Source: an uncultured Candidatus Peribacteria bacterium
GTDB lineage: Bacteria > Patescibacteriota > Gracilibacteria > UBA4473
NCBI GenBank assembly: GCA_964578905.1
Contig: CAZOER010000002.1
Location: 4,840 to 68,839, forward strand
DNA length: 64,000 nucleotides
Direction: 5' to 3'
The position numbers were made by a program, and so were the translations under genes. The notes below the pieces were generated by a model. That model was not told where the DNA came from, did no database searches, and saw nothing but the letters and a program-made list of their open reading frames with translations. This document shows positions 4,003-60,370 of this stretch, one piece after another. Position 1 is the first letter of the stretch; every line of letters starts with the position of its first letter.

Positions 4003-4025
4003 TGTGTAAAAAGTTAAAAGTAAAT

Positions 4026-36192: not shown

Positions 36193-36246
36193 AACTTTGA
36201 CACTCTTATGGGGCAATGTATGATGAATGCCCTTAACCCAATACAC

Positions 36247-37864: not shown

Positions 37865-37893
37865 TTGAATTTTCCTTTTATCTATGGTATAAT
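37865..37893 (+). promoter_or_regulatory. Promoter of the first gene of the giant locus: TTGAAT-17-TATAAT with extended -10 TG
   Basis: AAACCCTTGAATTTTCCTTTTATCTATGGTATAATTA is 33/37 identical to the module at 41089-41125. Confidence 0.65.
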
Positions 37894-37917
37894 TACCTGA
37901 TTTTGAATTCAAATTTC

Positions 37918-38421
37918 ATGACCAATACACCACAACGATCGTTAGAAATAGATCCAGGAGAGCAAATCTTTTCTTGGATAGCTTTTAATTATCATCCTCA
38001 TAAACGAGGATGGATTTGGTATGCAGTCTTCTGCACGCTCTTCTTTGGAAGTGCTCTTTGGGCACTTGTGAAAGGGGATTGGGTGATGGCCTTCACGCTC
38101 TTCGTTGCGGTTGGTGTGTACTTTTTTATTCACCGAAAAGGAGATGAAGAGCACGAAGTGCAAGTCTTTAAAAATGGTATTCGCATTGATCAGCGATTTA
38201 TTCAAAAAGAAAAAATAGAAGGATATTGGACGGTCTATGATCAGACAGTGAGTGTTCTCAATCTGCAATTAGCAGGAAAAGGAGATCGAAAAATCTCATT
38301 GCAAATGGGGGAACATAATCCCGATTTTTTTCGATCGGAATTTAAATCAATGGAACTGGAAGAGCTTTTGGATAAAAAAGAAAGCTTGATGGATCTTTGG
38401 ATTCGAGCACTAAAACTCTAA
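37918..38421 (+). CDS. Small two-TM membrane protein with a PH-like soluble domain (locus gene A)
   Basis: The ORF is open from TTG 37903; the first ATG is at 37918. Two TM helices (WIWYAVFCTLFFGSALWALV; VMAFTLFVAVGVYFFI). The start codon is uncertain. Confidence 0.65.
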   Translation: MTNTPQRSLEIDPGEQIFSWIAFNYHPHKRGWIWYAVFCTLFFGSALWALVKGDWVMAFTLFVAVGVYFFIHRKGDEEHEVQVFKNGIRIDQRFIQKEKIEGYWTVYDQTVSVLNLQLAGKGDRKISLQMGEHNPDFFRSEFKSMELEELLDKKESLMDLWIRALKL

Positions 38422-38428
38422 GTACTTC

Positions 38429-40765
38429 ATGAAACAAAATACTTCTTTCTCGTCATTGCCCACAGGTGCACACTTGCATTTTGCGGAAGCTGGTGAAGTG
38501 AAGTTTGTTTTTGTGAATTTGGATAAGAACGAAACAATGGAACGGGCGGAAGTTGGATTTCAAGATGTTCAAAAAGAATTTACACTCCAACGAACAAAAC
38601 TAGAACAACAGAATCTAAGTGAAGGAATTGTTTCTCGTCGAGTGTTGGAACTTTCTGATGAAATGAGAGCAAAGGCAACAGAAATTGCTGAGCAAAAAGT
38701 AGAAATGGAATTTCGAAGACTTGATAAGTTGTATGAACAAAAACTCGTGGAAGTCTATGGATCAAGAGCGAAATCAACGGATGCCAATGCTATCAAGACA
38801 TGGCTTCAGCAACAAGTGATAGGTATAAACTCGGATGTAAATATACGTCCTCCAGAAAAAATAAAAAAAATAGAAGCGTTGATGGAACCTTTTATTCGGG
38901 AAGCTGAAAAAATTGAAAATAATGACAATTGGATTCAAAAGGGATGGAAAGCCTTAGGAAAAGGATTAGGGGCAGCAAAAGATGCTACGATTGGAAGTGA
39001 TATTGATTGGAAAACTCGAGGAAATAACGCTCTGGGACTTGGAATTACGTCAATGTATGTCGTCGGAATTTTTGCAGGAGCAAAAAGAGGTGCCATGTGG
39101 TGGACTGGAGGTATTGCAGCAGCGTCAGCATCACTTCTTCCCGAGGGAACACGATGGACGTTATTTGCAGCAGATAAAGCACTTGAAGGTGTCGGAACGG
39201 GAGTGAATTGGACATTTACCCATATTAAAAATGGACTTGTCGGACTGGCGCGTACGGATGTGCATCAAATGTGGAGCGGTCAAACAGAAATAAATGAAAA
39301 AAGAACAGAAGTAATGGAGGGGATGTATGGAAAAAATATAATGAAACCGCAACTTCGACGAACATTAGAAAATGGAGAGAAAGGAGAATTTCTTGTGACG
39401 GATAGTTTACATGCCAAAATTCAGAATCCTGCAAAGGTTGAAACATTGACGGATGATGAATACAAGGAACGAAGTGAAGGAGCAGCGCAATTTTGTGTAG
39501 AAATGATGGATCCATCACTTCTTTTGACACAGGAAGATGTTACGCCTGCACAAATGGAGAAGTTGAAAAATCTGGATCGTTACTCTGAATGGGATTCTGA
39601 AACACGAGAACTTATTAAACGAACGTTTGCGACAAAAGAAGCGGTTATAATGTGGAATTATTTCATGTTGTCAGCGGACAAAGAAAAAGAACTGGTCCCT
39701 TTTGCAAACGCATTTGGAAAAGGATTAGAAAGAAAACAGATCATTGAATATGGAATGACTGAAAAACAGATAAAGGCGGAATTGCAGAGAAAATTAAATG
39801 AAATGTATCCTAATATTACGATTGATCTTATGGAGAAAACTCCAGAAGGAATTGCTTCTTTTATGAAGGAAGGGGGAATTGAAGATTTGTTAATAGCGGT
39901 AAGTATATTTATGGCAGGGGTGTATGGAGTTGTTGCAATTGGGGCTGGAGCCAAGGCGATTCGAGAAAAATGGAATGATAGAAACAACGAAACAAAAGAA
40001 TCAAGGTACTTGAACAAAAGAACGAAAGCGAAAAAGAATCTTCAGAATATTCTTAATAGACCGAATGTTGGAAAAAAAGAATGGAAAGATGCTTTGAAGT
40101 ATCTATTTCGAATGGGAGTGATTCATGAAGGGGAGCAAAAAGAATTGGGTAAACTCAAAAAAACAGGGACAATTTCTGAACCTGGATGGACAGGGATTAT
40201 TGCTAAGATGAAAGCAAATCAATTTGGAACGGAAGCAAATGTTGGAAGTAATGAAATCAGTGTTACCAAGCAATTGCAGGAAAAATTTTGGGCATGTGTT
40301 GGAAATAACAATCTTACAAAAAAGAAGCGAGCTGAAATTGGAGAGATTAATGCAGAAAATAAAATAGAAAGACAAAAAGCAGTAGGAAGGCTTAAAGAAT
40401 TTAAAAAAGTACGTGAGGAGTATCAAGCCTTCTTAAAAGAGAATCAAGCGTATAGTCGAGAGCATTCATTATGGCAAATCCATATCGGTATTGCGAATAA
40501 GGGACGAAAAACAAAAGAAGTTTGGAAGCGGTTTAATGAATGGAGAAAAGTAAAAGGAAAACAATCAAAACAAATTGATTCTTCTATTTTCAAAAAATAC
40601 GCTGAAAATAGAACTATTTATGCTGATTTGAAAATATTAGGAATCCATCAAAATCAAGTTGATTTACTAAAATCTATTTCCAAGAAAAAAGGAGCTCGAA
40701 AAATAGCGATTTATACAAAAGTAGATGAAATGTTGGGGATTCCTTTAAAAGGAACTTCGAGTTAA
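38429..40765 (+). CDS. 778-aa coiled-coil protein with two Gly/Ala-rich hydrophobic segments (locus gene B)
   Basis: No signal peptide. Hydrophobic blocks ALGLGITSMYVVGIFAGAKRGAMWWTGGIAAASASLL and LLIAVSIFMAGVYGVVAIGAGA. Lys-rich C-terminal third. No family recognised. Confidence 0.75.
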   Translation: MKQNTSFSSLPTGAHLHFAEAGEVKFVFVNLDKNETMERAEVGFQDVQKEFTLQRTKLEQQNLSEGIVSRRVLELSDEMRAKATEIAEQKVEMEFRRLDKLYEQKLVEVYGSRAKSTDANAIKTWLQQQVIGINSDVNIRPPEKIKKIEALMEPFIREAEKIENNDNWIQKGWKALGKGLGAAKDATIGSDIDWKTRGNNALGLGITSMYVVGIFAGAKRGAMWWTGGIAAASASLLPEGTRWTLFAADKALEGVGTGVNWTFTHIKNGLVGLARTDVHQMWSGQTEINEKRTEVMEGMYGKNIMKPQLRRTLENGEKGEFLVTDSLHAKIQNPAKVETLTDDEYKERSEGAAQFCVEMMDPSLLLTQEDVTPAQMEKLKNLDRYSEWDSETRELIKRTFATKEAVIMWNYFMLSADKEKELVPFANAFGKGLERKQIIEYGMTEKQIKAELQRKLNEMYPNITIDLMEKTPEGIASFMKEGGIEDLLIAVSIFMAGVYGVVAIGAGAKAIREKWNDRNNETKESRYLNKRTKAKKNLQNILNRPNVGKKEWKDALKYLFRMGVIHEGEQKELGKLKKTGTISEPGWTGIIAKMKANQFGTEANVGSNEISVTKQLQEKFWACVGNNNLTKKKRAEIGEINAENKIERQKAVGRLKEFKKVREEYQAFLKENQAYSREHSLWQIHIGIANKGRKTKEVWKRFNEWRKVKGKQSKQIDSSIFKKYAENRTIYADLKILGIHQNQVDLLKSISKKKGARKIAIYTKVDEMLGIPLKGTSS

Positions 40766-40787
40766 GTATTAAATAAGAAGAATTAAT

Positions 40788-41060
40788 CTTAAAAAAATAT
40801 AAATTTCCCGGTTGGTTTTTTGTCACCCCGAATTTATTTCGGGGTCAACCCATGAAAATATATCAATATAGAAGAAAAACACGAAATAAGGATGTATGAG
40901 TCAAAGTTTGTTCGATAATTATTCGTTTGATCCTGAAACAAGTTCAGGATGACAAAGTAGGAATGGAATTATTAAATTCTGAAGCAAGTTGCTTCGTGAT
41001 CTGTAATATCAGCATGACAAAATTAGAGTAATTCGAAGATCCCTGAATGAATCAGGGAAT
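40788..41060. repeat. Long copy of the bounded intergenic multi-hairpin cassette, inside the giant locus
   Basis: Left end CTTAAAAAAATATAAATTTCCC. Hairpins ACCCCGAA-TTTAT-TTCGGGGT (40825-40845), ATCCTGAA-ACAAG-TTCAGGAT (40930-40950) and TCCCTGA-ATGAA-TCAGGGA (40040 is not used; 41040-41058). The right-end 32 nt is identical to 32586-32617. Confidence 0.7.
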
Positions 41061-41094
41061 CGTCTATTTTATATGCTTTAAGCCTTTTAAACCC

Positions 41095-41123
41095 TTGATT
41101 TTTCCTTTTATTCATGGTACAAT
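41095..41123 (+). promoter_or_regulatory. Promoter of locus gene C: TTGATT-17-TACAAT with extended -10 TG
   Basis: AAACCCTTGATTTTTCCTTTTATTCATGGTACAATTA is a near-duplicate of the 37859-37895 module. Confidence 0.65.
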
Positions 41124-41143
41124 TAGGAGATTGATAAACATTT

Positions 41144-43333
41144 ATGAAATTTTTACGAAAACTCATTTCACCAAAAGTATGTATTGCACTGGCTATCGCG
41201 CTTGTGATAGGGCAGTTTATCAGTCCGGAAGTTGCTATGGCGGTGACAGAAAGTAATGAGAATGAAACACTAAAGGCCTTTGCCCAGTTGTTTTCAGTTT
41301 TTGTGAATATCTTTACGTTCATTTCCCTTGTCTTTCTCAATTATGGAGGAGATTTAGTTGGAACAGAGTTTTTGACAGGTCCAGATCCAATGGGAGCAAT
41401 CCGTCCAATGTGGGTGATTATACGAAATATAACGAATGTACTCTTTGTATTAATTTTGCTCTTTTTAGCCTTTTCAAATCTATTCTCTTCTCTTGGAGGA
41501 GAGGGAGGAAATTGGACCATTAAAGAGAAACTTCCAAAGGTTATTTTGGCACTGATTGCGATTAACTTTTCATTGCTCGGATTTCGAGTGGTTATTGATG
41601 CGGTTCATGTAGGAACGATTACGATCTTTTCGATTCCCGATAGCACACTTCAAGCAAAAGGGAGCGACAACCTTCAGGATATGCTCATTCAAAGAGTTGA
41701 AGTAGATGTAGATAAAGATGTAGTAAAATATGTGCCTTTTTATGAGGTTATGAATGATCTCATGTGTGGTACTGACAAAGGAAATGAGTGGCACAGTGAA
41801 GGAAGAAAATTCAAAATAAATGAAGAAGGGCTTCCAGAAATAGATGCATCTGGGGAATATAAGGCATTAAATGAAAGTTTGTCAGATGACTGTTTCTTTG
41901 GAATAGATCCAACAGATATGAGAGTCGGAAGCCCAAAGAGTAGATCAGCACATAACTTATTTTTGGCTTTTGGGATTCAATTTCAAAAATTACAAAATCT
42001 ACCATCATTGGCAGCACGTCTTAACGATTGGTCAGATGTATTTACGAGTGTGCTCTTCGTGAGCATCTTATCGTTAGCACAGGTTGTAGCATTAGCAGCG
42101 GTGTTTATTGCTTTGCTTTTGCGAATTGTTGTGTTGTGGGTAGCCATGGTGTTCTCACCAGCATTAATCGCAGCTGCGATTATGGGATTTGGTGGTGGAA
42201 AAGAAGGAACTATTGGAACACAAGTAATTACGAATCTTATTATGCCACTCAAGATTGCAGCGGCATTCTCAGTGTGTTTCTTGATGATGGATACAATGAT
42301 GAATGTAGGCGAATCGGGAGTGGGAAACCTTATTAGAACAGGAGCCTCAATTTCAACGTTTGGAGCAACAGGATATGGACTATTATGGTCTATTGCGACT
42401 ATTGTTGTATTCTGGAAGGCAGCCTTCTGGGCCCTTGAGGGATCAGCAGGAGAAGATATTGCCAATACTATTAAAGGAGGTGCAGAAACGACAGGGAAGT
42501 TCCTTGCAAAAGCAGGAACAGTGGATCGAGAATTCTTCCCAATGCCAGGTATGGATGGAGAAAACAAAGTGGCACTTTCTACGCTCTACAAAGCCGGTAC
42601 AAGTGGTGTGGTAACTGCGCACAATAAAGCCATGGAAAAAGATTCACGAAGTTTTACAGATCATGTAGGGCTTACTGATCCGGCAAAAACAGGCAATGTA
42701 GAAAAAATAAGAGATGCTATAGGAAACATGGGAACAGCAGGACAAGTAATGGCATCAGAATTCGTAGATTTCATTAAAGAGCATCCTATCGAGGGACTTG
42801 ATAAGAAGAATGCAACAGATACGTATGGAAGGTTTGGTAATGCTTTAAAAACACAGATTGAGAACCATGGAGGAGGAGAAGCTGGATTTATTGCTGGAAT
42901 GACAAAGGATATACAGGGACAAAAAGAATACTTAGAAACACTTAGATCAAAAGGAGTATTGAGTACTATTACAAAAGAAGAGATTGAGGATTTGGATGGT
43001 AAAGGATCAGGGAAATCTTCTACAACAGCAGCTGTTGCAGATCAAAATAAACCATTTGTGACGACAACGATAGTCAATGGTGTAAAAGAGTCAAAAGTTG
43101 TGTACTACAATGTTGATAGGTTGAAAGGGAATGGAGACGATGTTAAGGGTGATGTGGAAGCCATAAAAGCACTTCTCTCAGGAGCTGGTATTACAACAGA
43201 TGAATTGAAAGATATTGAGGGTGCAGAATTGGTGAAATTCTCAAGTAAAATAGAAAACATTGATGGATGGGGAAGTGTTGATAAAGCTGATATTGAAAAG
43301 GCTTTGAAAGAAATTCAAACACCGCCTCAATAA
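41144..43333 (+). CDS. 729-aa polytopic membrane protein with signal peptide and about 300-aa soluble C-terminal domain (locus gene C)
   Basis: Signal-like MKFLRKLISPKVCIALAIALVIGQFISPEVAMA, then about 7 hydrophobic helices in two clusters (nt about 41260-41640 and 42030-42440). No family recognised. Confidence 0.8.
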   Translation: MKFLRKLISPKVCIALAIALVIGQFISPEVAMAVTESNENETLKAFAQLFSVFVNIFTFISLVFLNYGGDLVGTEFLTGPDPMGAIRPMWVIIRNITNVLFVLILLFLAFSNLFSSLGGEGGNWTIKEKLPKVILALIAINFSLLGFRVVIDAVHVGTITIFSIPDSTLQAKGSDNLQDMLIQRVEVDVDKDVVKYVPFYEVMNDLMCGTDKGNEWHSEGRKFKINEEGLPEIDASGEYKALNESLSDDCFFGIDPTDMRVGSPKSRSAHNLFLAFGIQFQKLQNLPSLAARLNDWSDVFTSVLFVSILSLAQVVALAAVFIALLLRIVVLWVAMVFSPALIAAAIMGFGGGKEGTIGTQVITNLIMPLKIAAAFSVCFLMMDTMMNVGESGVGNLIRTGASISTFGATGYGLLWSIATIVVFWKAAFWALEGSAGEDIANTIKGGAETTGKFLAKAGTVDREFFPMPGMDGENKVALSTLYKAGTSGVVTAHNKAMEKDSRSFTDHVGLTDPAKTGNVEKIRDAIGNMGTAGQVMASEFVDFIKEHPIEGLDKKNATDTYGRFGNALKTQIENHGGGEAGFIAGMTKDIQGQKEYLETLRSKGVLSTITKEEIEDLDGKGSGKSSTTAAVADQNKPFVTTTIVNGVKESKVVYYNVDRLKGNGDDVKGDVEAIKALLSGAGITTDELKDIEGAELVKFSSKIENIDGWGSVDKADIEKALKEIQTPPQ

Positions 43334-43414
43334 GCCTTAAGAGAAGAGAAAAAACAGAAAGGTTGTAATAAAACAATTTGACATTTTAGGCTAGGAAAAC
43401 TATGATGCTCAGAC

Positions 43415-43443
43415 TAGCTTTAGTGCCTTATTTATGGTATAAT
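43415..43443 (+). promoter_or_regulatory. Promoter of locus gene D: weak -35 TAGCTT, extended -10 TGGTATAAT, 11 nt from the ATG
   Basis: TTTATGGTATAATT at 43431-43444; ATG at 43455. Confidence 0.55.
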
Positions 43444-43454
43444 TCTCTGATTAA

Positions 43455-48929: not shown

Positions 48930-48998
48930 TTTTTGACGAAACTTGATTGCAAGTTTATTTCTTTACTATTTTCTCTTGAAAAAGAAAGGGGATTTTTC

Positions 48999-49027
48999 TT
49001 GAATTCCTTGCCTTAAATCTGCACAAT
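48999..49027 (+). promoter_or_regulatory. Putative promoter of locus gene E: TTGAAT-17-CACAAT
   Basis: Hexamers at 48999-49004 and 49022-49027, about 30 nt upstream of the ATG at 49058. Confidence 0.45.
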
Positions 49028-49057
49028 AAGGCGGAAAACAAAACCCCATTTTTCCCC

Positions 49058-52000
49058 ATGTTTTTCTTTGTAAAAACAAAAATAAAAACACAGAAAATTT
49101 TTCACGTATCTTGTGGAAGTTTTTTATGTTGGAAAAAGCGCTTAGCAGTGCTTCTTATTGGAACTTTGTTGATGCCGAGTTTCGCGTCTCCAGCGCATGC
49201 ACTTTTTGGGTATTGGGAATCTTCCCTAACGGTTCCAGATGTGGGAAGGGAGAAATTAGTATCGATATTAGTCGAAGAAAGTTTGCTCGAGAACATTAAA
49301 TTGAAAAACAAAATTGAGAACTATGCAGCAAGTGTTCAATCAAATATAAACGGAGAGGTGGTTCTGGTTCCCGTTCCCACAGAAGCTTCACCACTCGATA
49401 TTTATGAAGGAAATGCGCACTTGTACTTTTCAGGAAATGATTCAGATGGACGCTCTCAATTAGTGGGAACAATCTTTATTGGAGATGTCCCATTGCCTGT
49501 TGTCGAGAAGAGTGGAAATCTCTGGCCAACGATTTTTCCGTACGTGGACTTCGAAGATCCTGTTTACCAGTGGGATTATGAGAAAGAACGATTTGTGTTT
49601 CGTGGAGGAGGGAGTCATCAGGCTGAAGTATGGCATGGGGTGATTCGTTCCGATCCTCGTCACGATGAAGGATGGGATGCGAAGAAATTAAAAGATTTTC
49701 GAGAAAAAGAACTGATCACATTCTTTCAAACAAATGAGCAGGTAAATAGTGGAAGTATTACGTATGACAAGAATATTTTCTCAGCGGATCTTGTTACAGA
49801 CCAAGCAAACGGATTGGATGCAACGGCAATGGGACACTATGAAAATTGGGTGAACAACATCGAAGATATTGTGTACATGCGGTACACCAAGCACTGGGCA
49901 GCGGAAGTAATGGGGAACATTGAGGCAGACGATATTATCGATACGACTGTTTTTCCTGATAGTATGAAACCTCCGACAGAATCTGAGGATGCGGGTACTT
50001 TGATGGGGAACGTTCCTGATATTCACACAAAATTGATTATTGAAAAGGGAGTAAAGCGATATATTGAGACATGGAAAGAAAAACTTTCAATTGATAATGC
50101 AGAGATCGAAAAAACAGGACGTTGGGATCCTGCTGACATAGAAAGCACGATTGTGCTTATTTCTGAAAAAGATGAGCGAGCGGCGGTAAATCTCAAAGCA
50201 TTTAATGACATTCTTGATGCGACATTAAACACAGCCATTGTGGCGGAGAATGTACCAAAGGACATCAAAGTGAAAACAACAGAGAATGTTCCAATTTCTT
50301 ATGTTATTCCACAGATTCCTCCATTGGAGGATATCGCAATGACGCAGGACCGAGACAAAGATATGTATTGGAATGGAGTGTCTCGCGCGACGATGGCTAT
50401 CGAAGATTGTTCGATTCTGAGGGGGAGTCTAAGAACAGATCAGTATCCACATGCGCAAATGGTGGAAGCCAATCGGGCATACAACCCAGGAACATCTGAT
50501 GAAGATTATCCAACAGAAGCCGCGCCCGATTATCTTTGTGAAAATATACGAATTCCAGTGACATCAAATCCTAATTGGGGAGCGTATCATGCGTGGTGGG
50601 ACGAAGATTCTGATGACGATGGGACGCTGAATTATATTGATCTCGGAGAAGATTTATATGAATCCTGTTGCGCACTTAATTCAGAGTTCCTTCAAGATTC
50701 GTTTGAATATGTAAATGATTATTGTGAAATAGGATCGGAGTGGGTGATTCGTGATTACAAGGGATTAGGGGATCAAACTCCATATGCACCAGAAGCGACC
50801 GATGCTCCAACATTAACCAATCAATATCGGGATCATGTCGGGACAACAGAACCAGTTTTTGATATTACCGCAACAAAAGAAAGTCTTACGGGAACGCCTG
50901 GGGCGGAAGGATGTTCGACAATCTTGGATGTCGATGGAGACCATTCTATGGACTCTCTCGTATATCATATCGAACCGCAAAACAGCACCATATTGGCTCA
51001 GATGGAAGACATGGGAAGTATTGCCATGCCAGTCGATAAACCACGAGGGTTTTCTTTTTATGACGAGCAATGGGATTTTCATCGTATTAATTATTTCAAT
51101 GCATTTAGCCTCATTGGACGACACAGTGAGGTAACAGACGAAGCGGCTCGAAGAGAACTTCTAAAGCAAGAAATTCTTAATGGACTTCAGGATAAAATAG
51201 AGGAACTGAACGATATTATTCGAAATAATGCAACAGAGAATATCGATCTGATTGATACAACACTGTTTGATATACACACAGGAGATTTGGACGATATCGT
51301 GGATTCCATTATTTGGATTGATAAAACAATCGAATCAAAAAACAGACTTATGTTTGAGATCGCATTCTCTCCAGCAAAAGACGCCCAAGAGTTTCTTTTT
51401 AATGATGATTTTCACGATGGGTATGAGTTCGCTCAGATTACAGCTGAGAAAGCCGTATCGGGAAGTACAGGAGAAGAGGGGATTAGTATGGGATTTGAAC
51501 AGGGATCCGCTCCTGACAGTGAGCAATTTCAAGATGCAAAACTCGAAGCATCAGAATTCTCTTTCGATGATGGAGCCGATACAGAAGATATTCACAAACA
51601 AGACGAAGAGCATTTTGATTTTAGTGGACAAGAGTCCAGTCAGTCTGCTTGTAAGGGAAAAAATATCCTGAGCTGGTTTCCGTGTTTTATTAATTGGTTA
51701 TCAGAATTGCCGAACATTATTACGCAGAACTTTACGGTTCTCCCAGATCCACCAAAAAATGGAAACGAGGATTCAGATGAACCAGCAAAGCCAACCGTAC
51801 TGCCACCTTCAGGCGGAGGCGATAGTGCCAGTTCTTCTAGTTTTCAAAATACCGTAAGCCAGATAAAGACTTCTGTTCCCGAAATTCATATTGGAGCAGG
51901 AAACACCGATCCAGTTATCCTTGAAGCCGATTTAAAAAACAAAGCCGGAGGAGCCGTGCAATCGAGCTCAAGTGCAGAAGTGTCCATAAAGTTTAGTAAT

Positions 52001-55000
52001 TCTAATGGAGAAAAATTCTTTGATGTTTTCCCGAGCAAAAGTGTAGAACCTGTTGCAGGAAAAGCGGTGTTCACCCTCTTTCCAGAAGACACCGACGTTG
52101 GGGGATCGTTTGATATTAGTATGGAAGTTGATGGAGCGGTGCTTCAAAAAATACCCGTCACGGTTTCAAAATATTCATTAACCGCAGTGGCGGAAAAAAA
52201 CTACGTGGTGGTCGATAATAAAGAAGGCGTTTTAATTGAAGCAAAGGTTGAAGATCCCGATGGTATGGTTTCTTCAGAAAAAGACGGGAGTATTTTGGTC
52301 TTTGAATCAGACTGGGGAACATTTGAACAGAACGGACACGCATCTGTTCGTAATGGACGAGCAGAGATTGTTTTCTTCCCAGGGATTAGATCAGGAGAAG
52401 CGACCATTCGTGTTCAAGATTCAAAAAAGAACCTTCCACCTGCAGAAGAATCTGTAAATATTATTGCGGGAGAAATTCAGTCTATTGAGATCGAAACAAA
52501 GACAGAAACCCTTATTGCGGGGGCTGATTTCCTGCCGGTTGTAGCACAACTTCAGGATAAATTTGGAAATGATATTACGAGAGGATCAGGAGAATTTATA
52601 TGGGAAACAACGAATTTGGAAATACAAGGAATTGAAAAAGCGAAGAAGTTTAAAACTACGATTGAAAATGGAAAAAAGAAACTCCTCATCCGACCCAAAC
52701 ACAAACTGCCAGCGGCGGAATTGCGAGTGAAAGTAAAACTTCCTTTCGAAGAAGTCGTGCAAGTGAAAATTTTTACTATTCCACAAAAGGTCGTCTTCAG
52801 TATCGAAACATCTGAAGAAAGTGTTACGGCAGGGTCAGCAAATCCAATCAGAGTGCTCGTTATGGCAGAAACAGAAGAAGGCGAACGTATTGAACAAAAT
52901 CTGTCAGTAAACGTATTGGGGGAACCTGCGGGAATGGGACAGTTCCTCAATACGATTGAAATGGAAGATGGACTCGGTGAATTCAAATTTTATGCCGGCA
53001 CAAAAGCAGGGGAGACAAGCCTCTCGTTTTCAAGTCCTGGATTTGAAACAAGTGAAGAAGTTTTCACAATAAATCCTGATACGGCGGTGAAGATACTGAC
53101 TTCAATTGATACAGAAACAATGGATGTCGACGATCCTCACGCAGAGATAAATCTTGATATCAGTGTTGTTGATAGGTTTGGAAATGTGGATACAACCTTT
53201 GTAGATAAGGTGCATTTGTTACCAAATGAACCAGACCTTTTCCTTTCAACGAATAGGGAGACACTGATTGATTTGGACATGATTGATACCTCTGGAGGAA
53301 TTCAATATGTTATAGATGAAGAAGCAGATGCATCAAGAGCCTCCGGAACTTCGCCAGACACAAGTCTTCTTCAGACAACAGATGGATGGTCCGTTCCAAT
53401 GAAAAAAGGAAAGGCAACGGTTGAAATGACCCCCGGATCTACAAGTACGGGGAAAGTTCTTATGAGTATCGAGTCAGCGGGGCTTGTTCCAGATACCGTT
53501 GAGTTTGTCGTGACAGATTATCTAACCGCAGATGAAATTGATGACCTGACGCCAAAGTCTCGCTTCACACTCCTTACGGGATTTGATGGAGGAGATATGC
53601 TCGCGGGGAAGGGAATTGGAAATCGATTCCTGCTTTCTGGAAAATCTCAAGCGGTGGGAACTTTGATTGCGCCTCCAAATCCAAAGAAGCGACTCGGATA
53701 CATTTCTCCGGCAGGGGACGTATCGCTTCAGCTCAAAGCAGAAGTACGCATGAATGAGTACTTTACCGTAGAAATAAAAGACAGTGTTCGACCGATTGCC
53801 CAACTTCATGTGCGATTTGAAGAAGAACCTGAGTTCTTTGTGAAACGAGAAAAGGGAACCTCTCCTGGAATTTACTTCCTTCCAACAGAAGGACTCGTGG
53901 AATCGCTTGTACGAGAAGGGGATACGATTCTCTGGGATGATGCCCCAGTGTTCACCATTACCCCACAAGGTGGTCTCCAGATCGTTCAAGGGGGATATGA
54001 GTTTATTTCAGAAGGATCATTTCTAGAGTGGAACGTTGAAAAAGAAGACCAACCAATCGGAACACTTGCGATTGTTCCCACCGAAGAAACATTTACTCTT
54101 TTTGATACCCAGGACCGAATTCCAACTGAAGCTGAAGGAATTTTTGTGCATCAAGAAGTTTCGGATATTCATATAAAAGAAAGCTTCACAGGAAAGACAA
54201 CAAATGACGAGAGAGGACTGGTCTTTGTTGATTCGAATAAAGAAGAATCCTCAAACAAGAAACTCGGGGCACCGTATTTATCTGCAGAGAATGTGCAGGA
54301 GGATAAAGAAATTGTGTGGACGAATTCATGGAAACCAGCTTCTCGGTATGCTGCGGGAAACATTGTTGGAGAATCTGTGCAATGGAATTCAAGTGATGCG
54401 TTTATATTGCTTGGAGATCCGACGACGAGTGTTGCATCAGAAAATGATCGTTCCACGCTCGGGATTACCGAAGATGTTGGAAAACCTATTTGGAAGAGTC
54501 CATTAGGAACAATCGAACAAATTATCGTCGCAGATATTAATGCCGATGATGTGCCAGACATTCTTAACCGAGTAGGGAAGAGGCTTTTTGCGCTCTATCA
54601 AGAAAACAGTGAGATCGATAATTTCCGGGACACCGGACCGATTCTCCGTTTTGAAGATGGTGTACAAAAGGTGTTTGCCGTTGATAACGATCACGATAAC
54701 TTTAGTGACATTATCCAATTAAACGATGAAGGAATTCTTATTTTACATAGAAATACAAACGGAACCTTTGCTCGAGCAGGTGTCATTATTAATGGATTCG
54801 ATGGCGTTATTAATGAAATCTTTGAAGGGAATATTGATGATGATGAATATAAAAACGATCTTGTATTCTCTGATGCAGAAAAAACACTTTGGTTTGCGCC
54901 AGGGACAGCCGATGTAGGTGTGTATGGTCCTGCGACAGCCATTGAGAGATTTGCTCCAAGTCTGGAAGCAACGGAAGAAGTTTATATTGCTTCAGCAGAA

Positions 55001-58000
55001 CAGGACTGGGAAAAGCGAAAGTATTTCGATACCGATAAATTTCCAAATCTTGAGAGAGTCTTCGTTTCGTATGAAGGGGTAAAGGATGATATCACCGATC
55101 AAACTCCAGAAGATGCTATTCGTATTGAGGGAAGTGATGACTTGCTTCCAGAAAATGCCTTTGAGAGAGGTATTGGAGAAGGGGGAATGCACTTTAATTT
55201 TGGAAGCGTTCCAGTGTCAGAAGAAACACTTGAGGGCATGACATCGTCACTACAAGGAACGATGGATGAACAATTGGCACAGATGGCCGAACAAGTGCTT
55301 GGAGACTCGGGCGGAGCTTTCAAAAAAACATTCCTAGAGATACCATTTCAAATGCGAGTAAATGGAACCTGGACACTGCTACCTGAGGGAAGTTCTCAAT
55401 TACAACTTGGCCAGGCGGTTCATGCTGGATTTGAATTCACGCCAATTACAGATCTCGAGTCTTTTGAATTTCTCCTTCCAAAGATGAATGGGATGACATT
55501 TGAAAAAGAGTCTTTTTCTTGTGAAGAATGTGATGGGGAAGTTCAGTTTAGAGAAGACATTCCTGATGACGTGGAGGTCTGGGGATACTGGGAACAACCA
55601 CTGGAAAGTGGTGAGAAAATAGAACTCACATGGGATCTGACAGTAGAAGACATGGGACCACTTTCTTTTCAAGTTCTTGATTACAAGAGTAATGACACGA
55701 TTGATGATATCTTGATTGGATGGGAAGAAGACGGAGAGAAAAAAATTATTAAATACCAGTCGCATCCTCAGAACAATAATAATACTGCCTTTAAGCACTC
55801 TCAGGATATTGTGGATGTGACAATGCCATCCGACCCAGATGCACCTTCACAAGACGCATTAAAGGATAAATATACACAAGATGATGATGCGAATGGACTC
55901 CCTGATATTTGGGAAACCTTTGGGACCCTAGCTTTAACAAGCGTAGCAGGCGCAATGACTTGTAGAGGAAACTGTGGACTGCCGATTCCATCGATTGTCA
56001 TTCCACCATTTGCTCCCGGAAGTCAGACGCTTTATGTACCACCGTTTGCGATTAAACTTCCGAAATGGCCAATGCCGTTGCCGATGTTTTCATTATTGAT
56101 GAATCCATCAGGAGTACCGACGCCTGTCTTTTATACCCCCAAAGGGGGAGAGGTAATTGCGTCAGGACTGATCTCTTTGTTTCGAATATATCTTATTCCA
56201 ACAACGAATGCCTCACTTGGGATTAGTTTTTGTCCGTTTCCTTATAACGTAGGAGATAAGACGCAGTTCCCAATCGGAAACTGTTTCACAATCGTTATCC
56301 CATCAATCTTTGGGGGGGCCTTCTGTAGTTCTGATGATAGCGAAGCAGGTGATACAGAAGATTCAATTCGGAATATGATGCAGGATTACAATCCTGCAGA
56401 CTACAAACCAAAGTTTGAATTCAATAAACCAAATAAAACAATTCACACAGCCGAAGTGATAAGTGATTGGATTCGTCGACAAAAAGCAGAATGGAATAAT
56501 ATTAAACTTCCAACGCCGAAACTCTCAAAACCAAAATTACCAAAGACACTTGTTCGAGAAAAAGTGAAAACAGTAGAACCATTGTTTGCGGAAAACACGA
56601 AGGTTCTTGGGCGAAAACTATGGAAAGACATTGATCAAAAATCATGGGTGACGCTCAAGCCGGAACTCCATACGTTTCCATACCCAGTCTTTCCCAAGAC
56701 TGATGAAAACGGTGATAACGCAGAATTAGAAAAATACCATATCCAATGGCAAGCTTGGAAAAAGGCTCCAAAGAAATACCAAGAAGATAAGAAAAAACTG
56801 AAAGCCTTTTATAACGAAAATTGTAAGGGAGAAAAAGCGCAGACAAAAGAGTGTGAAAAATTATCGAAAAATATTGTTTCATTTGATGCATTTATTGGTT
56901 CTGTCTCACAGAACGAACAAGCGATTGCGAAGAACTGGGAAGCGATTGAATCCTACAAAGAAGTGCCGAAAGTCCTCAGCGAACTCTTTAAAGACGAAGA
57001 GGGAGAAGAAGGAGATATGACAAGACTTGGAAAGCAGTTCAAAAAATACGGCGATGAAATTGAAATCTATACGAAGGAGTGGCTTGATGCGAATAGAAAA
57101 GCGATCGCCAAATGGAAGAAATTTATTAAAGAACTCAAAGAGTTCTTTAAATCGATTGAAATGATATTTGAAATCTTTGGAGAATTCAAAAATGATTGTC
57201 CGACATGTTCTATAGAACGAGGATCAAGTACAACAGTTTTAATTAACCTCTTATTGGGAGCCCTCAAAATACCGGTTATTCCAGCGCCGCGATTGCCGGA
57301 TATTCTTCTTGATTTCTCACGTATTGATTTCACGGTTCAATTACCCGTTCCAGAAATAGAACTTCAACCGGTCGAGCTCGCATATCCTGATTTGCCACCA
57401 CCACCAACGATTAGAGTGAGTATGGGCTTTGATGTTCCTGCGTTACCCGTGATCCCCGTCTTGCCAAAGATGCCAGAGATCAAGATCAATGTTTCAATTC
57501 CAGAACTTACGATCCCTGTTCTTCCAGTGCTTCTCGATCCTCCAGGGATTCCAAATCCAATTGTGAAATTGAAAGCGATTGTGAAAATATTTAACATATT
57601 CTTAAAATTATTCTGTTTGATTGTGAGAAACTTCATTCCCGTTCCAGAACATTATTTGGCGGGACATGTTCAGCAAGTTACAAACAGAACACGGATGATC
57701 GGTCTTGATTTCACGCTCCCTTCGCTTTCTCTGAATTTACCACAGCTTCCAGAAATTGAAGATATTGAAATTGCTCTTGAAGCCCATCTTTCTTTACCAA
57801 CCGTGGCGCTTGAAGTTCTGAATGCAACGGTAGGGGTTTTCGCAGAACTTGATCAGTGCGTGGTTGATTCATTGAGTAAGGTATTAAAAGGAGCCCCAGA
57901 GGGAGCAATCTGTGAAGCAGGAGGAGGTGGGGGCGTTGCCTTTGAACCAAAAACACTTGTCGAGAATAAAGTGAAATATAATATTGTTGCCAATGTGGAA

Positions 58001-60370
58001 CCGAGTTATTTTGAAAAAACGCATACACCACAACCAACATTTGCAGAGGCCTTTACAAAAGCATTCGCTTCATCTGATCGAATTCTAAAAATGGCATTCA
58101 CATCAAAGAGAAATGTGTTCTCATCAATTGCACCAAAGCGAATGGCACGTTGGTTAACTTCAGTTGTTGATGTGGGATCTATTCCAACAGAGGCGCCTTC
58201 CGACTTTGATGTAACCGCTTTTCAAGAAAAACAAAACAATTCATTTCAACGACCGCCTACTGTTTATTACTTTGATCCGGTTACCGAAACCGCAGAAAGC
58301 ATTACGAGTTTCCCAGGGGAGCAAATAACGGCGCACACGTTTGCCGATATAGGGAAAGATTACAATGATGAGATCTTGTATGCGATTGATGATGAGCTCT
58401 ATTTGAAATATCGAATAGTACCGACCAGCGACGCTGACGATCTCGAAAAGAAGTACGAACAGAAGCACGGAGGGGATTATGAAGATCGATTTGGGAAATT
58501 CACCAAATGGGACTTCGAGACATTTCGAGAGAAATTCGCTCCGGCGAAAGAAGTTCTCGATTCAGTAGAAACAACGGGAACGACATTTGAATTCAAACAA
58601 ATATTTAATGGAACATCGTACTTCGAATGGGTTGTGAGCGACCGTCCTGATTTTGTTTTTGAAATGGCAGAAGACTCGTCTGATAGAATGTCTCAACAAT
58701 GGGAACGGAACGCATTCTTGGTTCGTCCGCAAGAAACGAAATACGAGATTCGACCGATGACGAGTAAAATTAAAGATATAAAAGGATCGCCAATTTTATA
58801 CGCATCTCCTTCAGAAAAGATCCAACGGTTTAAACAAAAAGATTGTGATGATGGTGCAATAGAAAAGCCATTCTTCGCAACAGAATCTCTTTTGGTGGGA
58901 ATTGATAAATACTCTCGATTTGAAATTCAAGTACCACCGCTTCCAGGAATGCCTGAACAAATTGAAGAGAAAGTCCTTCGAAAAGGGGAGGAAACCATCG
59001 TTGAATACGGGGCTGTTTGTCTCACGCGAGGAGATGTAGAACGTGTTGCCATGACCGAAATTCAACGTGTTCATCCGAGAGAAAACACATATCTCCCTTC
59101 TGGTTCACGAATGGAATTGGGCAATAATGACCGAGTAAAATTGGAATACTTTGATGGAACGAAGGTGACCGTTTATGAAAATGAAAAATACACACTGCGT
59201 ATTTTTGAGACAGAAGACGAACTTATTCGAGCCTTTGAGTCGTTGCAAAAAAAGAATCAATATGGAGCGTTCCAAGGGTTCACGAAGACTGGTGAGAGTT
59301 TCTTCTTTACAAAGTATCTTCACGACCCACAGGGAGCATCTGACACTACTCCGCCAGAGATTTATATTGCTGGAGGAACAAATATTTCTGCGAAAGTATT
59401 TACGCCTGTTTCCGTTGATGCTTCTCGATCACGAGACACCGATAGTGGGATTGGAAACGTGTGGTGGGATCTTTATCCAGGATATGATACGGACAAAGAT
59501 GGAGACACCACAAATGATAAAGATTTCCCGACAGACGAAACCGTGACTCCACGTGAGGTGCTCAAGGTGTCACTTCCTTTGTATGAATCTGAGGGGACCG
59601 CATCTGTCATTTTGCATGTTGAGGACGAAGAAGGAAACCACTCACAAGAAACACTCACAATTACCGTCACGGCATCTCAACCACAAATTGAGGAAGCGAC
59701 GATGAGAGGGAGAAGTATTTTGGGGAGTGTCCGCGATAGTGTGGAAGGAATTCCAATTTTCGTTGAACGAAATCGAAGGGGACAATGGGAACCCATTCGT
59801 CAGGAATCAATTCCAACTGATCGAGGTGGGGATTTTTCTATGATAAGTATGGGGACATCCGGCGGTATTGAAATAGAAGATTTTGCAAACAAAGAGGCCT
59901 TTGAAATTTTGGAAAATGGGCGTCCAATTCTTCTCAATGACATGTTTGATATCATTGTGCGAAGGGCGACAGCGAGCCGTCCGACGAGTATCTTTCTGCG
60001 AGATGAACAGGAAACGACCATAACTTCGATTGCCTTTGAAATTCCAGGGAAAGAAAATGTTGTGCTCGATGAAGACGAACTCTCATTCACATCAGAATCA
60101 TCTGTGCACGTTCTCGATAGAAATACGAAAGACACTATCCTCTTTGAAAAAACAAAAGAGGGGAATGTTCTCATTTCTTCTCAATCAGCTCCATTGGCAT
60201 TGATTGATAAAAGAGGGGATTTCTATGGTTCTCTCGATCTTCAATTAAAGCGAGCAAAGAATGAAAACGATCCGGTTGTATTTGAAATCCTTGGTCTCAA
60301 AGATACGGTTGTGGGTGAGTTTGTAATTCTTCTCGGAGAGGATTCAAACATGCATGTAACGCGACAATAA
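49058..60370 (+). CDS. 3770-aa giant surface/membrane protein with Ig-like array, FG-GAP/VCBS-like repeats, two hydrophobic Pro-rich blocks and a PKD-like domain (locus gene E)
   Basis: Uninterrupted 11.3-kb ORF with N-terminal signal-like KKRLAVLLIGTLLMPSFASPAHA. Big_1-like units span about nt 51850-53520. DINADDVPDIL / VDNDHDNFSDII repeats lie at about 54500-54920. Hydrophobic blocks lie at about 55920-56340 and 57225-57900. A PKD-like segment (VDASRSRDTDSGIGNVWWDL) lies at about 59350-59670. Confidence 0.9.
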   Translation: MFFFVKTKIKTQKIFHVSCGSFLCWKKRLAVLLIGTLLMPSFASPAHALFGYWESSLTVPDVGREKLVSILVEESLLENIKLKNKIENYAASVQSNINGEVVLVPVPTEASPLDIYEGNAHLYFSGNDSDGRSQLVGTIFIGDVPLPVVEKSGNLWPTIFPYVDFEDPVYQWDYEKERFVFRGGGSHQAEVWHGVIRSDPRHDEGWDAKKLKDFREKELITFFQTNEQVNSGSITYDKNIFSADLVTDQANGLDATAMGHYENWVNNIEDIVYMRYTKHWAAEVMGNIEADDIIDTTVFPDSMKPPTESEDAGTLMGNVPDIHTKLIIEKGVKRYIETWKEKLSIDNAEIEKTGRWDPADIESTIVLISEKDERAAVNLKAFNDILDATLNTAIVAENVPKDIKVKTTENVPISYVIPQIPPLEDIAMTQDRDKDMYWNGVSRATMAIEDCSILRGSLRTDQYPHAQMVEANRAYNPGTSDEDYPTEAAPDYLCENIRIPVTSNPNWGAYHAWWDEDSDDDGTLNYIDLGEDLYESCCALNSEFLQDSFEYVNDYCEIGSEWVIRDYKGLGDQTPYAPEATDAPTLTNQYRDHVGTTEPVFDITATKESLTGTPGAEGCSTILDVDGDHSMDSLVYHIEPQNSTILAQMEDMGSIAMPVDKPRGFSFYDEQWDFHRINYFNAFSLIGRHSEVTDEAARRELLKQEILNGLQDKIEELNDIIRNNATENIDLIDTTLFDIHTGDLDDIVDSIIWIDKTIESKNRLMFEIAFSPAKDAQEFLFNDDFHDGYEFAQITAEKAVSGSTGEEGISMGFEQGSAPDSEQFQDAKLEASEFSFDDGADTEDIHKQDEEHFDFSGQESSQSACKGKNILSWFPCFINWLSELPNIITQNFTVLPDPPKNGNEDSDEPAKPTVLPPSGGGDSASSSSFQNTVSQIKTSVPEIHIGAGNTDPVILEADLKNKAGGAVQSSSSAEVSIKFSNSNGEKFFDVFPSKSVEPVAGKAVFTLFPEDTDVGGSFDISMEVDGAVLQKIPVTVSKYSLTAVAEKNYVVVDNKEGVLIEAKVEDPDGMVSSEKDGSILVFESDWGTFEQNGHASVRNGRAEIVFFPGIRSGEATIRVQDSKKNLPPAEESVNIIAGEIQSIEIETKTETLIAGADFLPVVAQLQDKFGNDITRGSGEFIWETTNLEIQGIEKAKKFKTTIENGKKKLLIRPKHKLPAAELRVKVKLPFEEVVQVKIFTIPQKVVFSIETSEESVTAGSANPIRVLVMAETEEGERIEQNLSVNVLGEPAGMGQFLNTIEMEDGLGEFKFYAGTKAGETSLSFSSPGFETSEEVFTINPDTAVKILTSIDTETMDVDDPHAEINLDISVVDRFGNVDTTFVDKVHLLPNEPDLFLSTNRETLIDLDMIDTSGGIQYVIDEEADASRASGTSPDTSLLQTTDGWSVPMKKGKATVEMTPGSTSTGKVLMSIESAGLVPDTVEFVVTDYLTADEIDDLTPKSRFTLLTGFDGGDMLAGKGIGNRFLLSGKSQAVGTLIAPPNPKKRLGYISPAGDVSLQLKAEVRMNEYFTVEIKDSVRPIAQLHVRFEEEPEFFVKREKGTSPGIYFLPTEGLVESLVREGDTILWDDAPVFTITPQGGLQIVQGGYEFISEGSFLEWNVEKEDQPIGTLAIVPTEETFTLFDTQDRIPTEAEGIFVHQEVSDIHIKESFTGKTTNDERGLVFVDSNKEESSNKKLGAPYLSAENVQEDKEIVWTNSWKPASRYAAGNIVGESVQWNSSDAFILLGDPTTSVASENDRSTLGITEDVGKPIWKSPLGTIEQIIVADINADDVPDILNRVGKRLFALYQENSEIDNFRDTGPILRFEDGVQKVFAVDNDHDNFSDIIQLNDEGILILHRNTNGTFARAGVIINGFDGVINEIFEGNIDDDEYKNDLVFSDAEKTLWFAPGTADVGVYGPATAIERFAPSLEATEEVYIASAEQDWEKRKYFDTDKFPNLERVFVSYEGVKDDITDQTPEDAIRIEGSDDLLPENAFERGIGEGGMHFNFGSVPVSEETLEGMTSSLQGTMDEQLAQMAEQVLGDSGGAFKKTFLEIPFQMRVNGTWTLLPEGSSQLQLGQAVHAGFEFTPITDLESFEFLLPKMNGMTFEKESFSCEECDGEVQFREDIPDDVEVWGYWEQPLESGEKIELTWDLTVEDMGPLSFQVLDYKSNDTIDDILIGWEEDGEKKIIKYQSHPQNNNNTAFKHSQDIVDVTMPSDPDAPSQDALKDKYTQDDDANGLPDIWETFGTLALTSVAGAMTCRGNCGLPIPSIVIPPFAPGSQTLYVPPFAIKLPKWPMPLPMFSLLMNPSGVPTPVFYTPKGGEVIASGLISLFRIYLIPTTNASLGISFCPFPYNVGDKTQFPIGNCFTIVIPSIFGGAFCSSDDSEAGDTEDSIRNMMQDYNPADYKPKFEFNKPNKTIHTAEVISDWIRRQKAEWNNIKLPTPKLSKPKLPKTLVREKVKTVEPLFAENTKVLGRKLWKDIDQKSWVTLKPELHTFPYPVFPKTDENGDNAELEKYHIQWQAWKKAPKKYQEDKKKLKAFYNENCKGEKAQTKECEKLSKNIVSFDAFIGSVSQNEQAIAKNWEAIESYKEVPKVLSELFKDEEGEEGDMTRLGKQFKKYGDEIEIYTKEWLDANRKAIAKWKKFIKELKEFFKSIEMIFEIFGEFKNDCPTCSIERGSSTTVLINLLLGALKIPVIPAPRLPDILLDFSRIDFTVQLPVPEIELQPVELAYPDLPPPPTIRVSMGFDVPALPVIPVLPKMPEIKINVSIPELTIPVLPVLLDPPGIPNPIVKLKAIVKIFNIFLKLFCLIVRNFIPVPEHYLAGHVQQVTNRTRMIGLDFTLPSLSLNLPQLPEIEDIEIALEAHLSLPTVALEVLNATVGVFAELDQCVVDSLSKVLKGAPEGAICEAGGGGGVAFEPKTLVENKVKYNIVANVEPSYFEKTHTPQPTFAEAFTKAFASSDRILKMAFTSKRNVFSSIAPKRMARWLTSVVDVGSIPTEAPSDFDVTAFQEKQNNSFQRPPTVYYFDPVTETAESITSFPGEQITAHTFADIGKDYNDEILYAIDDELYLKYRIVPTSDADDLEKKYEQKHGGDYEDRFGKFTKWDFETFREKFAPAKEVLDSVETTGTTFEFKQIFNGTSYFEWVVSDRPDFVFEMAEDSSDRMSQQWERNAFLVRPQETKYEIRPMTSKIKDIKGSPILYASPSEKIQRFKQKDCDDGAIEKPFFATESLLVGIDKYSRFEIQVPPLPGMPEQIEEKVLRKGEETIVEYGAVCLTRGDVERVAMTEIQRVHPRENTYLPSGSRMELGNNDRVKLEYFDGTKVTVYENEKYTLRIFETEDELIRAFESLQKKNQYGAFQGFTKTGESFFFTKYLHDPQGASDTTPPEIYIAGGTNISAKVFTPVSVDASRSRDTDSGIGNVWWDLYPGYDTDKDGDTTNDKDFPTDETVTPREVLKVSLPLYESEGTASVILHVEDEEGNHSQETLTITVTASQPQIEEATMRGRSILGSVRDSVEGIPIFVERNRRGQWEPIRQESIPTDRGGDFSMISMGTSGGIEIEDFANKEAFEILENGRPILLNDMFDIIVRRATASRPTSIFLRDEQETTITSIAFEIPGKENVVLDEDELSFTSESSVHVLDRNTKDTILFEKTKEGNVLISSQSAPLALIDKRGDFYGSLDLQLKRAKNENDPVVFEILGLKDTVVGEFVILLGEDSNMHVTRQ

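Follow-up and report, generated by a model that had tools for sequence, protein, structure and literature searches.

The window analysed here is a 64,000-nt stretch of one contig from an uncultured Candidatus Peribacteria bacterium, and its span from 37865 to 60370 carries five consecutive genes on the + strand, which we call A to E. An earlier interpretation made from the letters alone, hereafter the sequence-only reading, had described five same-strand genes of 167/172, 778, 729, 1824 and 3770 amino acids (aa) without a recognisable family. Our check of the open reading frames (ORFs) recovered all five, present and intact (Table 1), and the same locus is found, identical, on 14 public metagenome contigs. 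The absence of a recognisable family was borne out as well. Pfam, NCBIfam and PHROGs gave no match for A–E at an E-value of 0.1 or below beyond noise; in PHROGs, C had just a 28-residue match (E-value 0.006) to a family of unknown function and the other four proteins matched no family. The cluster proteins had no family match in phage and plasmid collections either, and searches of PDB sequences by profile or single sequence came back empty for A, C, the C-terminus of D, and E. A Walker A motif is absent from all five proteins. No clear homology of the set to a type IV secretion system (T4SS), a phage tail or tape-measure module or an RTX/Bap operon was found, and by every comparison that we made the cluster appears to lie outside all characterised systems.

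The arrangement itself is conserved. Across the 33 species-representative genomes that encode a homologue of C, the order nucleotidyltransferase-A-B-C-D-E is kept on one strand in at least 17 species-level genomes, all labelled Ca. Peribacteria or Ca. Gracilibacteria, with proteins 25–65% identical and ORFs intact under the standard code. Across these loci A has 167–208 aa, B 551–944, C 681–868 and D 1051–2087, E is always a giant, the gap from A to B is 0–9 bp in every case, and the other gaps are short. Conserved order and intact ORFs across so many genomes argue that the arrangement is not a product of chance. The locus always sits in a core-chromosome context, with genes for SecA, PilT, DnaE, TPR and thioredoxin proteins as neighbours, and the cluster is chromosomal and non-mobile in its setting and, by all appearances, vertically inherited. 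The sequence-only reading had pointed to sugar-nucleotide enzymes on both flanks (36903 and 60428). Both are there, and the upstream nucleotidyltransferase directly precedes A in most syntenic loci, often with PilT-DnaE further upstream; the region downstream of E, including galU, is not conserved among the relatives, and we do not count galU as a member of the unit.

Outside this clade the five genes come apart. In a distant genome labelled 'Patescibacteria group' (L058), the order is rpsF-ssb-rpsR-A-(a 537-aa protein)-C-D followed by an unrelated gene, with no E; C matches at an E-value of 5e-155 and the homologue of the D C-terminal domain, directly downstream of C, at 1e-40. A Peregrinibacteria contig (L047) has rpsF-ssb-A-(two unknown genes)-C. 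The recurrence of A-B-C-D beside rpsF-ssb-rpsR without E, together with the occurrence of E alone elsewhere, indicates that A-B-C-D is the conserved core and that the linkage to E is clade-specific. A-B-C-D would thus be the older core, apparently joined to E only in the clade of the window, and the five-gene unit of the sequence-only reading does not hold throughout: E-like giants and C also stand alone. On present comparisons, the unit is better described as a core of A to D to which E has been added.

The genes of the cluster also evolve at very different rates. We compared identities to the nearest species-level relative, L010, and found 89% for DnaE, 89% for PilT and 84% for the nucleotidyltransferase, against 72% for A, 60% for residues 1–1200 of E, 55% for C, 35% for B and 34% for D. 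D is as distant from L010 as from far remoter genomes, a pattern that would fit either very fast divergence to a plateau or the replacement of alleles. The divergence of B and D suggests diversifying selection or allele exchange, and fast B and D beside slow neighbours point to an interface under diversifying pressure.

A is a small protein with two adjacent predicted transmembrane helices (residues 38–56 and 58–76), as had been proposed, followed by a domain of ~95 aa. In an alignment of 20 sequences W25, P32, W39, H77, G80 and W109 are invariant and the C-terminal DLWIRALKL is near-invariant. Among distant loci, L047 and L058 also have homologues. That of L058 (5537-6058) consists of two ORFs, one of 95 aa that matches the N-terminal half of the A profile and one of 78 aa that matches its C-terminal half; the gene may truly be split there, or a frameshift or an error in sequencing could be the cause. 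The Pfam matches of the 20 family members are weak and scattered (DUF4131 in seven, best 0.009; ThrE in six). We considered a bPH protein (PF03703, bPH_2/YdbS-like), whose architecture is similar, but bPH and PDB matches are absent among the 20 members; VirB3 was rejected too (P=0.34, no similarity).

In B, which starts almost directly after A, the N-terminus is charged and helical, residues ~175–265 form a Gly-rich hydrophobic stretch, one transmembrane helix is predicted (487–505) and the C-terminal tail is basic. The earlier description of B, a coiled coil with two Gly-rich hydrophobic segments, mostly holds. Between genomes B is barely alignable (12–35% identity), with its architecture and position retained. 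The spacer between B and C has 378 bp in the window versus ~50–100 bp in relatives, with 82 bp in L010. Three short hairpins lie in the spacer of the window, for example CACCCCGAATTTATTTCGGGGT at ~40820-40845, and it could encode a small RNA or hold some regulatory element.

The family of C is large: an exhaustive profile search yielded 586 cluster representatives at an E-value of 1e-30 or below and 931 at 1e-10 or below. The genomes that C homologues come from bear the labels Ca. Gracilibacteria, Ca. Peribacteria or Ca. Peregrinibacteria. Its N-terminus is signal-peptide-like and is followed by ~8 transmembrane helices, a Cys-containing external loop (~172–265) and a variable hydrophilic tail (~460–729), so that the polytopic protein with signal peptide and large tail described earlier stands. 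In the AlphaFold2 (AF2) model, made with 30 homologues, the signal-peptide-like helix leads into three long helices; an external loop, part of it β and bearing conserved Cys, lies between these and five further helices, and from ~460 a disordered hydrophilic tail of ~270 aa follows. W90, R94, P131, F142, R327, W332, P339, P368 and W424 are among the invariant residues. Foldseek returned neither GT-C glycosyltransferase nor flippase folds, and we rejected both identities.

D has neither a predicted transmembrane segment nor a signal peptide. Its first ~1080–1100 residues are 23–35% Lys+Glu, almost free of Pro, helical-looking and variable between relatives. A conserved globular domain follows, in which invariant Trp, Gly and Asp abound and the motifs include DHDDA, GKMNGQPDQR and NGRIVPEGTPGAE. 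A homologue search with this domain returned three proteins. The cytoplasmic-looking Lys/Glu-rich protein with a globular end of the sequence-only reading therefore stands, with its 'coiled coil' character judged by composition alone.

E begins with a signal peptide, and all 85 of its 85 homologues are giants of ~2,300–6,400 aa from Gracilibacteria/Patescibacteria. Two blocks define the family, residues ~60–480 and ~2560–2950. The most conserved part lies at 62–290, with near-invariant E190, W192, H193 and G194; in the AF2 model of residues 40–600 (21-sequence alignment) it is a flavodoxin-like alpha/beta domain. Foldseek against the PDB listed lumazine synthase and PurE as best matches (E-value 0.014, TM-score ≤0.47), and a BFVD fold search gave nothing at an E-value of 0.001 or below (best 0.013); matches of this kind are to generic alpha/beta folds only, and the fold is therefore not diagnostic. 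The motifs 'LIGDVPLP ... WHG' had raised a gingipain/caspase-like protease, which we rejected because the model is flavodoxin-like and no protease is among the top Foldseek matches.

Further along, E has a putative bacterial Ig-like repeat region and a putative FG-GAP/VCBS-like region. In P0085, the FG-GAP_3 stretch aligns with the latter at 35% identity (E-value 1e-21), and DxNxDxxxD-type motifs are visible in E. Since E itself falls under the Pfam thresholds for Ig-like and FG-GAP domains, both assignments are made via the homologues P0085 and P0073; the size of E and the hydrophobic blocks around a Lys-rich segment, also part of the earlier description, were found in E directly. The Lys-rich stretch has 9–13 Lys+Arg per 50 residues in most windows and six in one. 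Block 1 has no window that reaches Kyte-Doolittle 1.6, and block 2 falls inside residues 2560–2950, which rank second in conservation among the blocks of the family. Distant homologues of E carry SLH, Big_1 (PF02369), Invasin_D3 (PF09134), FG-GAP_3 (PF13517), DUF11 and TSP3 domains. SLH (PF00395) is absent from E and its close homologues and occurs only in distant members of 3,400–5,850 aa (~4,000–5,850 bar one); LPXTG, RTX repeats and a type I or type V secretion (T1SS/T5SS) partner are absent from E as well. In a separate observation on the family, the database translations of P0124, P0136-P0144 and P0146-P0148 contain 6–7% Trp and 0.4–3% Gly; their source lineages read UGA as Gly, yet the translations used UGA=Trp, and this distorts E-family alignments. 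Another concerns a UGA-recoded Gracilibacteria-type genome (L043:29448-30187), where two T4SS_pilin (PF18895) genes lie ~7 kb downstream of a stand-alone E-like giant.

Table 1. Positions of the cluster genes, their subregions and other features in the window.
Feature	Position	Strand	Basis or remark
Family-less ORF	142-1305	−	Pfam/NCBIfam
Family-less ORF	11822-13462	−	Pfam/NCBIfam
Family-less ORF	26840-27988	+	Pfam/NCBIfam
Family-less ORF	36208-36822	+	Pfam/NCBIfam
Sugar-1-phosphate nucleotidyltransferase, 312 aa	36903-37841	+	Pfam NTP_transferase 2e-34
Promoter-like site before A, TTGAAT-17-TATAAT + extended TG	37865-37893	+	10/12 consensus positions
Gene A, 172 aa from TTG	37903-38421	+	Two-transmembrane small protein
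Gene B, 778 aa	38429-40765	+	Fast-evolving membrane protein
B-C spacer, 378 bp	40766-41143	+	Hairpins and promoter-like site
Promoter-like site before C, TTGATT-17-TACAAT + TG	41095-41123	+	9/12
Gene C, 729 aa	41144-43333	+	Polytopic membrane protein
Promoter-like site before D, TTGACA-17-TATGAT	43378-43406	+	11/12, top of scanned region
Gene D, 1824 aa	43455-48929	+	Transmembrane- and signal-peptide-free, Lys/Glu-rich
D conserved C-terminal globular domain, residues 1058-1824, ~740 aa	46626-48929	+	26 invariant alignment columns
Gene E, 3770 aa	49058-60370	+	Giant secreted or surface protein
E N-terminal domain core, residues 62-290, flavodoxin-like alpha/beta	49241-49927	+	AF2 predicted local distance difference test (pLDDT) ~90
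E putative bacterial Ig-like repeat region, residues ~1102-1452	52361-53413	+	Aligns with PF18565 stretches of P0085, P0073
E putative FG-GAP/VCBS-like region, residues ~1835-1982	54560-55003	+	Aligns with FG-GAP_3 (PF13517) stretch of P0085
E hydrophobic block 1, residues ~2300-2430, Pro/Cys-rich	55955-56347	+	Cys and Pro positions kept in family consensus
E Lys-rich helical-looking stretch, residues ~2450-2700	56405-57157	+	Composition
E hydrophobic block 2, residues ~2714-2870, Pro/Cys-rich	57197-57667	+	CxxC motif, PxLP runs, best transmembrane candidate (2838-2856)
Family-less ORF	61326-61874	+	Pfam/NCBIfam
Family-less ORF	63096-63482	+	Pfam/NCBIfam

The sequence-only reading had also given A, C, D and E each a near-consensus promoter of its own. 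Matching to the −35/−10 consensus, the sole basis of our promoter calls, recovered the sites before A, C and D, and the gap before E has none at 9/12 or above. The total of such sites in the scanned 13 kb is not above that of shuffled sequence, and we treat them as leads, not evidence. Public gene calls start A at ATG 37918 (167 aa) instead of the TTG that gives 172 aa; the site before A, if used, would favour the ATG.

Upstream of the cluster lie, in order, secA, a PilT-family ATPase, dnaE, a 204-aa ORF without assignment and the sugar-1-phosphate nucleotidyltransferase, whose best NCBIfam matches, Arch_glmU and rmlA_long, are both under their cut-offs. The upstream T2SSE ATPase is PilT (TIGR01420, 383 bits, above cut-off), not VirB11. 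Downstream of E come a nucleotidyltransferase with GalU as its best match (60428), a 182-aa ORF without assignment, a TPR protein and a thioredoxin, and the remaining window holds ribonucleotide reductase, gyrB, mltG/YceG, glycosyltransferases and one tRNA-His. Six more ORFs of 128–546 aa have no Pfam or NCBIfam family. The GC content of the locus, 0.34–0.43, is at the low end of the window range (elsewhere 0.37–0.47), which Lys/Glu-rich coding bias would explain. All called genes from 31317 to 63482 (32 kb) are on the + strand, and the cumulative GC skew climbs steadily from ~32 kb, consistent with a long leading-strand block.

How might the five products work? A match to no characterised system makes a lineage-specific envelope or cell-contact structure the likeliest account, and we tentatively favour, at somewhat short of an even chance, a lineage-specific envelope cluster of Peregrinibacteria/Gracilibacteria-type Patescibacteria that combines an A-B-C membrane module, a D scaffold and E in cell contact. 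The predicted locations are complementary, with A, B and C in the membrane, D in the cytoplasm and E bearing a signal peptide. A (a two-transmembrane hairpin), B (bitopic, fast-evolving and helical) and C (polytopic) would assemble as one complex within the cytoplasmic membrane, on which D, a very long helical cytoplasmic protein, would dock as a scaffold via its conserved C-terminal domain. In the clade of the window this A–D core is genetically joined to E, a putatively Sec-exported giant with putative adhesin-type modules (bacterial Ig-like, FG-GAP-like and Ca-binding motifs); the membrane module may anchor or position E on the cell surface, where E would contact other cells or surfaces. 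The joint action of the five products, the scaffold and anchor roles and the function in cell contact are what we infer from the kept order with its 0–9-bp A-B gap, the recurrence of core genes in L058 and L047, the large family of C, the complementary locations, the core-chromosome setting, the adhesin or cell-wall-binding domains (Big_1, Invasin_D3, FG-GAP_3, SLH) of E homologues and the large extracellular proteins published for Peribacteria and Vampirococcus. The trans-envelope or cell-contact apparatus of the sequence-only reading is, to this extent, plausible.

Several observations weigh against this account. First, certain C homologues sit by themselves amid unrelated genes, giants of the E family are found on their own both in UGA-recoded genomes and as SLH-bearing forms, and E is unlinked to A–D in other lineages such as that of L058, so that A to E do not make up an obligate unit. 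Second, A, C and D are each preceded by a separate promoter-like site, and the locus encodes no energy source. Third, the models are of limited quality: the mean pLDDT is 67 for the N-terminus of E and 60 for C (70–90 in its transmembrane helices). Fourth, residues 2838–2856 are the sole segment of the hydrophobic blocks of E that scores transmembrane-like, and the anchoring of E is thus putative. At last, a module so widespread and so syntenic with housekeeping genes could have a general envelope or division role instead of one in host contact.

This last point leads to a rival that we hold to be on the unlikely side, namely that A-B-C-D is a lineage-specific housekeeping envelope system (a shape or division scaffold, or wall-polymer or S-layer export or anchoring) with no special host-contact role, and E a mere neighbouring surface or S-layer-type protein. 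The very wide, vertical distribution beside DnaE and PilT or rpsF-ssb-rpsR would suit such a system, as would the conserved sugar-nucleotidyltransferase neighbour, the likeness in composition of D to long helical cytoskeletal scaffolds, the cell-wall-binding SLH domains in distant relatives of E and the A–D core of L058 with no adjacent E. However, 34–35% identity of B and D where DnaE has 89% is unusually fast for housekeeping proteins, known division, elongasome, flippase and GT-C folds were not matched, and E itself has no SLH domain.

A bolder version of the cell-contact account, in which A-B-C-D is a new membrane machine for contact-dependent translocation or surface deployment built around a channel-like C, with E as its host-engaging extracellular arm, strikes us as unlikely. 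C, with a mere ghost of VirB6 likeness, would work with no known ATPase, and the fast-evolving D would serve it as a cytoplasmic scaffold or motor adaptor or else be a translocated substrate, a division of labour that we regard as equally unlikely.

The VirB6 likeness also underlies the view, which we consider doubtful, that A-B-C(-D) derives, with much divergence, from a T4SS or conjugation-type translocon or is what remains of one. On this view C would act as a channel protein of VirB6/TrbL type and carry at its N-terminus a hairpin like that of the VirB2 pilin, E would be the associated surface adhesin, and the ATPases would be encoded elsewhere. By probability and target TM-score, chains of the R388 TrwJ/VirB5-TrwI/VirB6 stalk lead the Foldseek list of the C model, whose mean pLDDT is 60 (7o3v_J, probability 0.41 and target TM-score 0.45; 8rt9_F, target TM-score 0.48), but all at E-values of 1.3 or above. 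Among 64 members of the C family, the leading sub-threshold Pfam matches include TraA in three, TrbC/VirB2 in one and TrbL/VirB6 in one (E-value 0.0069), while the Pfam search of C itself, which included TrbL/VirB6 (PF04610), gave no match. With hhalign, C reaches P values of 0.011 against the single sequence of R46 VirB6, 0.028 against R46 VirB2 and 0.012 against a patescibacterial T4SS_pilin; against a nine-sequence VirB6 profile and the MPF-FATA proteins PrgH and Tn916 Orf15 the values are 0.4, 0.66 and 0.15. We regard none of these scores as significant, and marginal ones come easily from hydrophobic helices. One C homologue, P0029 (L007/L020), bears the NCBI name 'type IV secretion system protein', which Pfam and NCBIfam models did not reproduce. 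VirB4, VirD4, VirB8, VirB3 and VirB1/hydrolase genes were found neither in the window nor in the related loci that we inspected, none of the neighbours of the stand-alone C homologues in L033 and L034 is a T4SS gene, A is unlike VirB3, and A–E have no Walker A motif. A recent survey reports dispersed T4SS genes in Gracilibacteria and a failure to detect VirB6 in them (PMC12102498), which leaves room for the T4SS idea, though membership is unsupported.

It seems improbable to us that A to E have no functional relation and have stayed in order only because small genomes rearrange little. Separate promoter-like sites and the occurrence of C and E alone elsewhere would agree with it, and the order is conserved well past the locus (PilT-DnaE upstream, TPR-thioredoxin downstream), which means that synteny is generally high in the clade. 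Yet A-B-C-D stand together again beside rpsF-ssb in distant genomes, and recurrence in another chromosomal context argues for selection on the linkage itself; the constantly minimal A-B gap also speaks against unrelated neighbours. A mobile element, a prophage module or an anti-phage defence island, which large genes of unknown function, some of them fast-evolving, might bring to mind, is very improbable indeed: a mobile-element or prophage origin was rejected on the PHROG, phage and plasmid nulls, integrase, transposase, nuclease and NTPase motifs were not found in A–E, the locus keeps the same chromosomal position across species with core genes on its flanks, and its low GC is explicable by coding bias.

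Much of bacterial diversity belongs to the Patescibacteria, also known as the candidate phyla radiation (CPR). Their presumed lifestyle is one of attachment to other cells, for which we know of no machinery beyond type IV pili and a T4SS in diverged form. The small-genome lineage presumed by the sequence-only reading is indeed of this type: the DNA is patescibacterial and homologues are labelled Ca. Peribacteria or Ca. Gracilibacteria. The cluster takes up 22.5 kb of a genome that related records suggest to be of ~1 Mb. If its products work together, it would be a candidate lineage-defining envelope structure, and it provides alignments, conserved motifs and a gene order that is usable as a marker.

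Compared with known systems, the cluster shows partial likenesses. Like VirB6/TrbL proteins (R388 TrwI, R46 TraD), C is polytopic, has a large loop outside the cytoplasm within the first half of its sequence and is extended at the C-terminus by a hydrophilic segment, and Tn916 Orf15, an extended VirB6 form like TcpH, is close to it in size (725 aa). C differs from these systems in that sequence, profile and fold matches are all non-significant, its linked genes A, B and D have no T4SS counterparts, and VirB4, VirB3, VirB8, VirD4 and hydrolase genes are not nearby. As for type IV pili, A–E have no match to T2SSE, T2SSF, PilM/N/O or pilins, and dnaE sits between PilT and the locus. HemolysinCabind, ABC_tran and HlyD, searched for as RTX/T1SS components, were not matched in E or the neighbouring genes, and unlike RTX/Bap adhesins E has an N-terminal signal peptide. 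A tblastn search of the D C-terminus and the E N-terminus against 50,697 phage records gave no match. Kinship with phages, plasmids or RTX/T1SS systems is thereby excluded at the search sensitivity reached.

Long coiled-coil proteins such as Streptomyces Scy/FilP and the DivIVA-type proteins act as cytoskeletal scaffolds in bacteria. D would resemble them in its more than 1000 Lys/Glu-rich, Pro/Gly-poor residues free of transmembrane segments and signal peptide; it differs in its ~740-aa C-terminal globular domain without known relatives, and its gene adjoins membrane-protein genes, not division genes. With giant Ig-like/FG-GAP adhesins E shares a signal peptide, giant size and, going by its homologues, putative Ig-like and FG-GAP-like regions, and its family members share the Big_1, Invasin_D3, FG-GAP_3, DUF11, TSP3 and SLH domains; its alpha/beta N-terminal domain and the Pro/Cys-rich module at 2560–2950 are without a known counterpart. 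The A–E cluster is not described in the literature on Peribacteria and Vampirococcus that we consulted (PMC4736985, PMC8080830). The same work makes large, strain-variable extracellular proteins a hallmark of both Peribacteria (PMC4736985) and Vampirococcus (PMC8080830), reports giant membrane-associated proteins in both, and links such proteins to host attachment (PMC8080830, PMC4736985).

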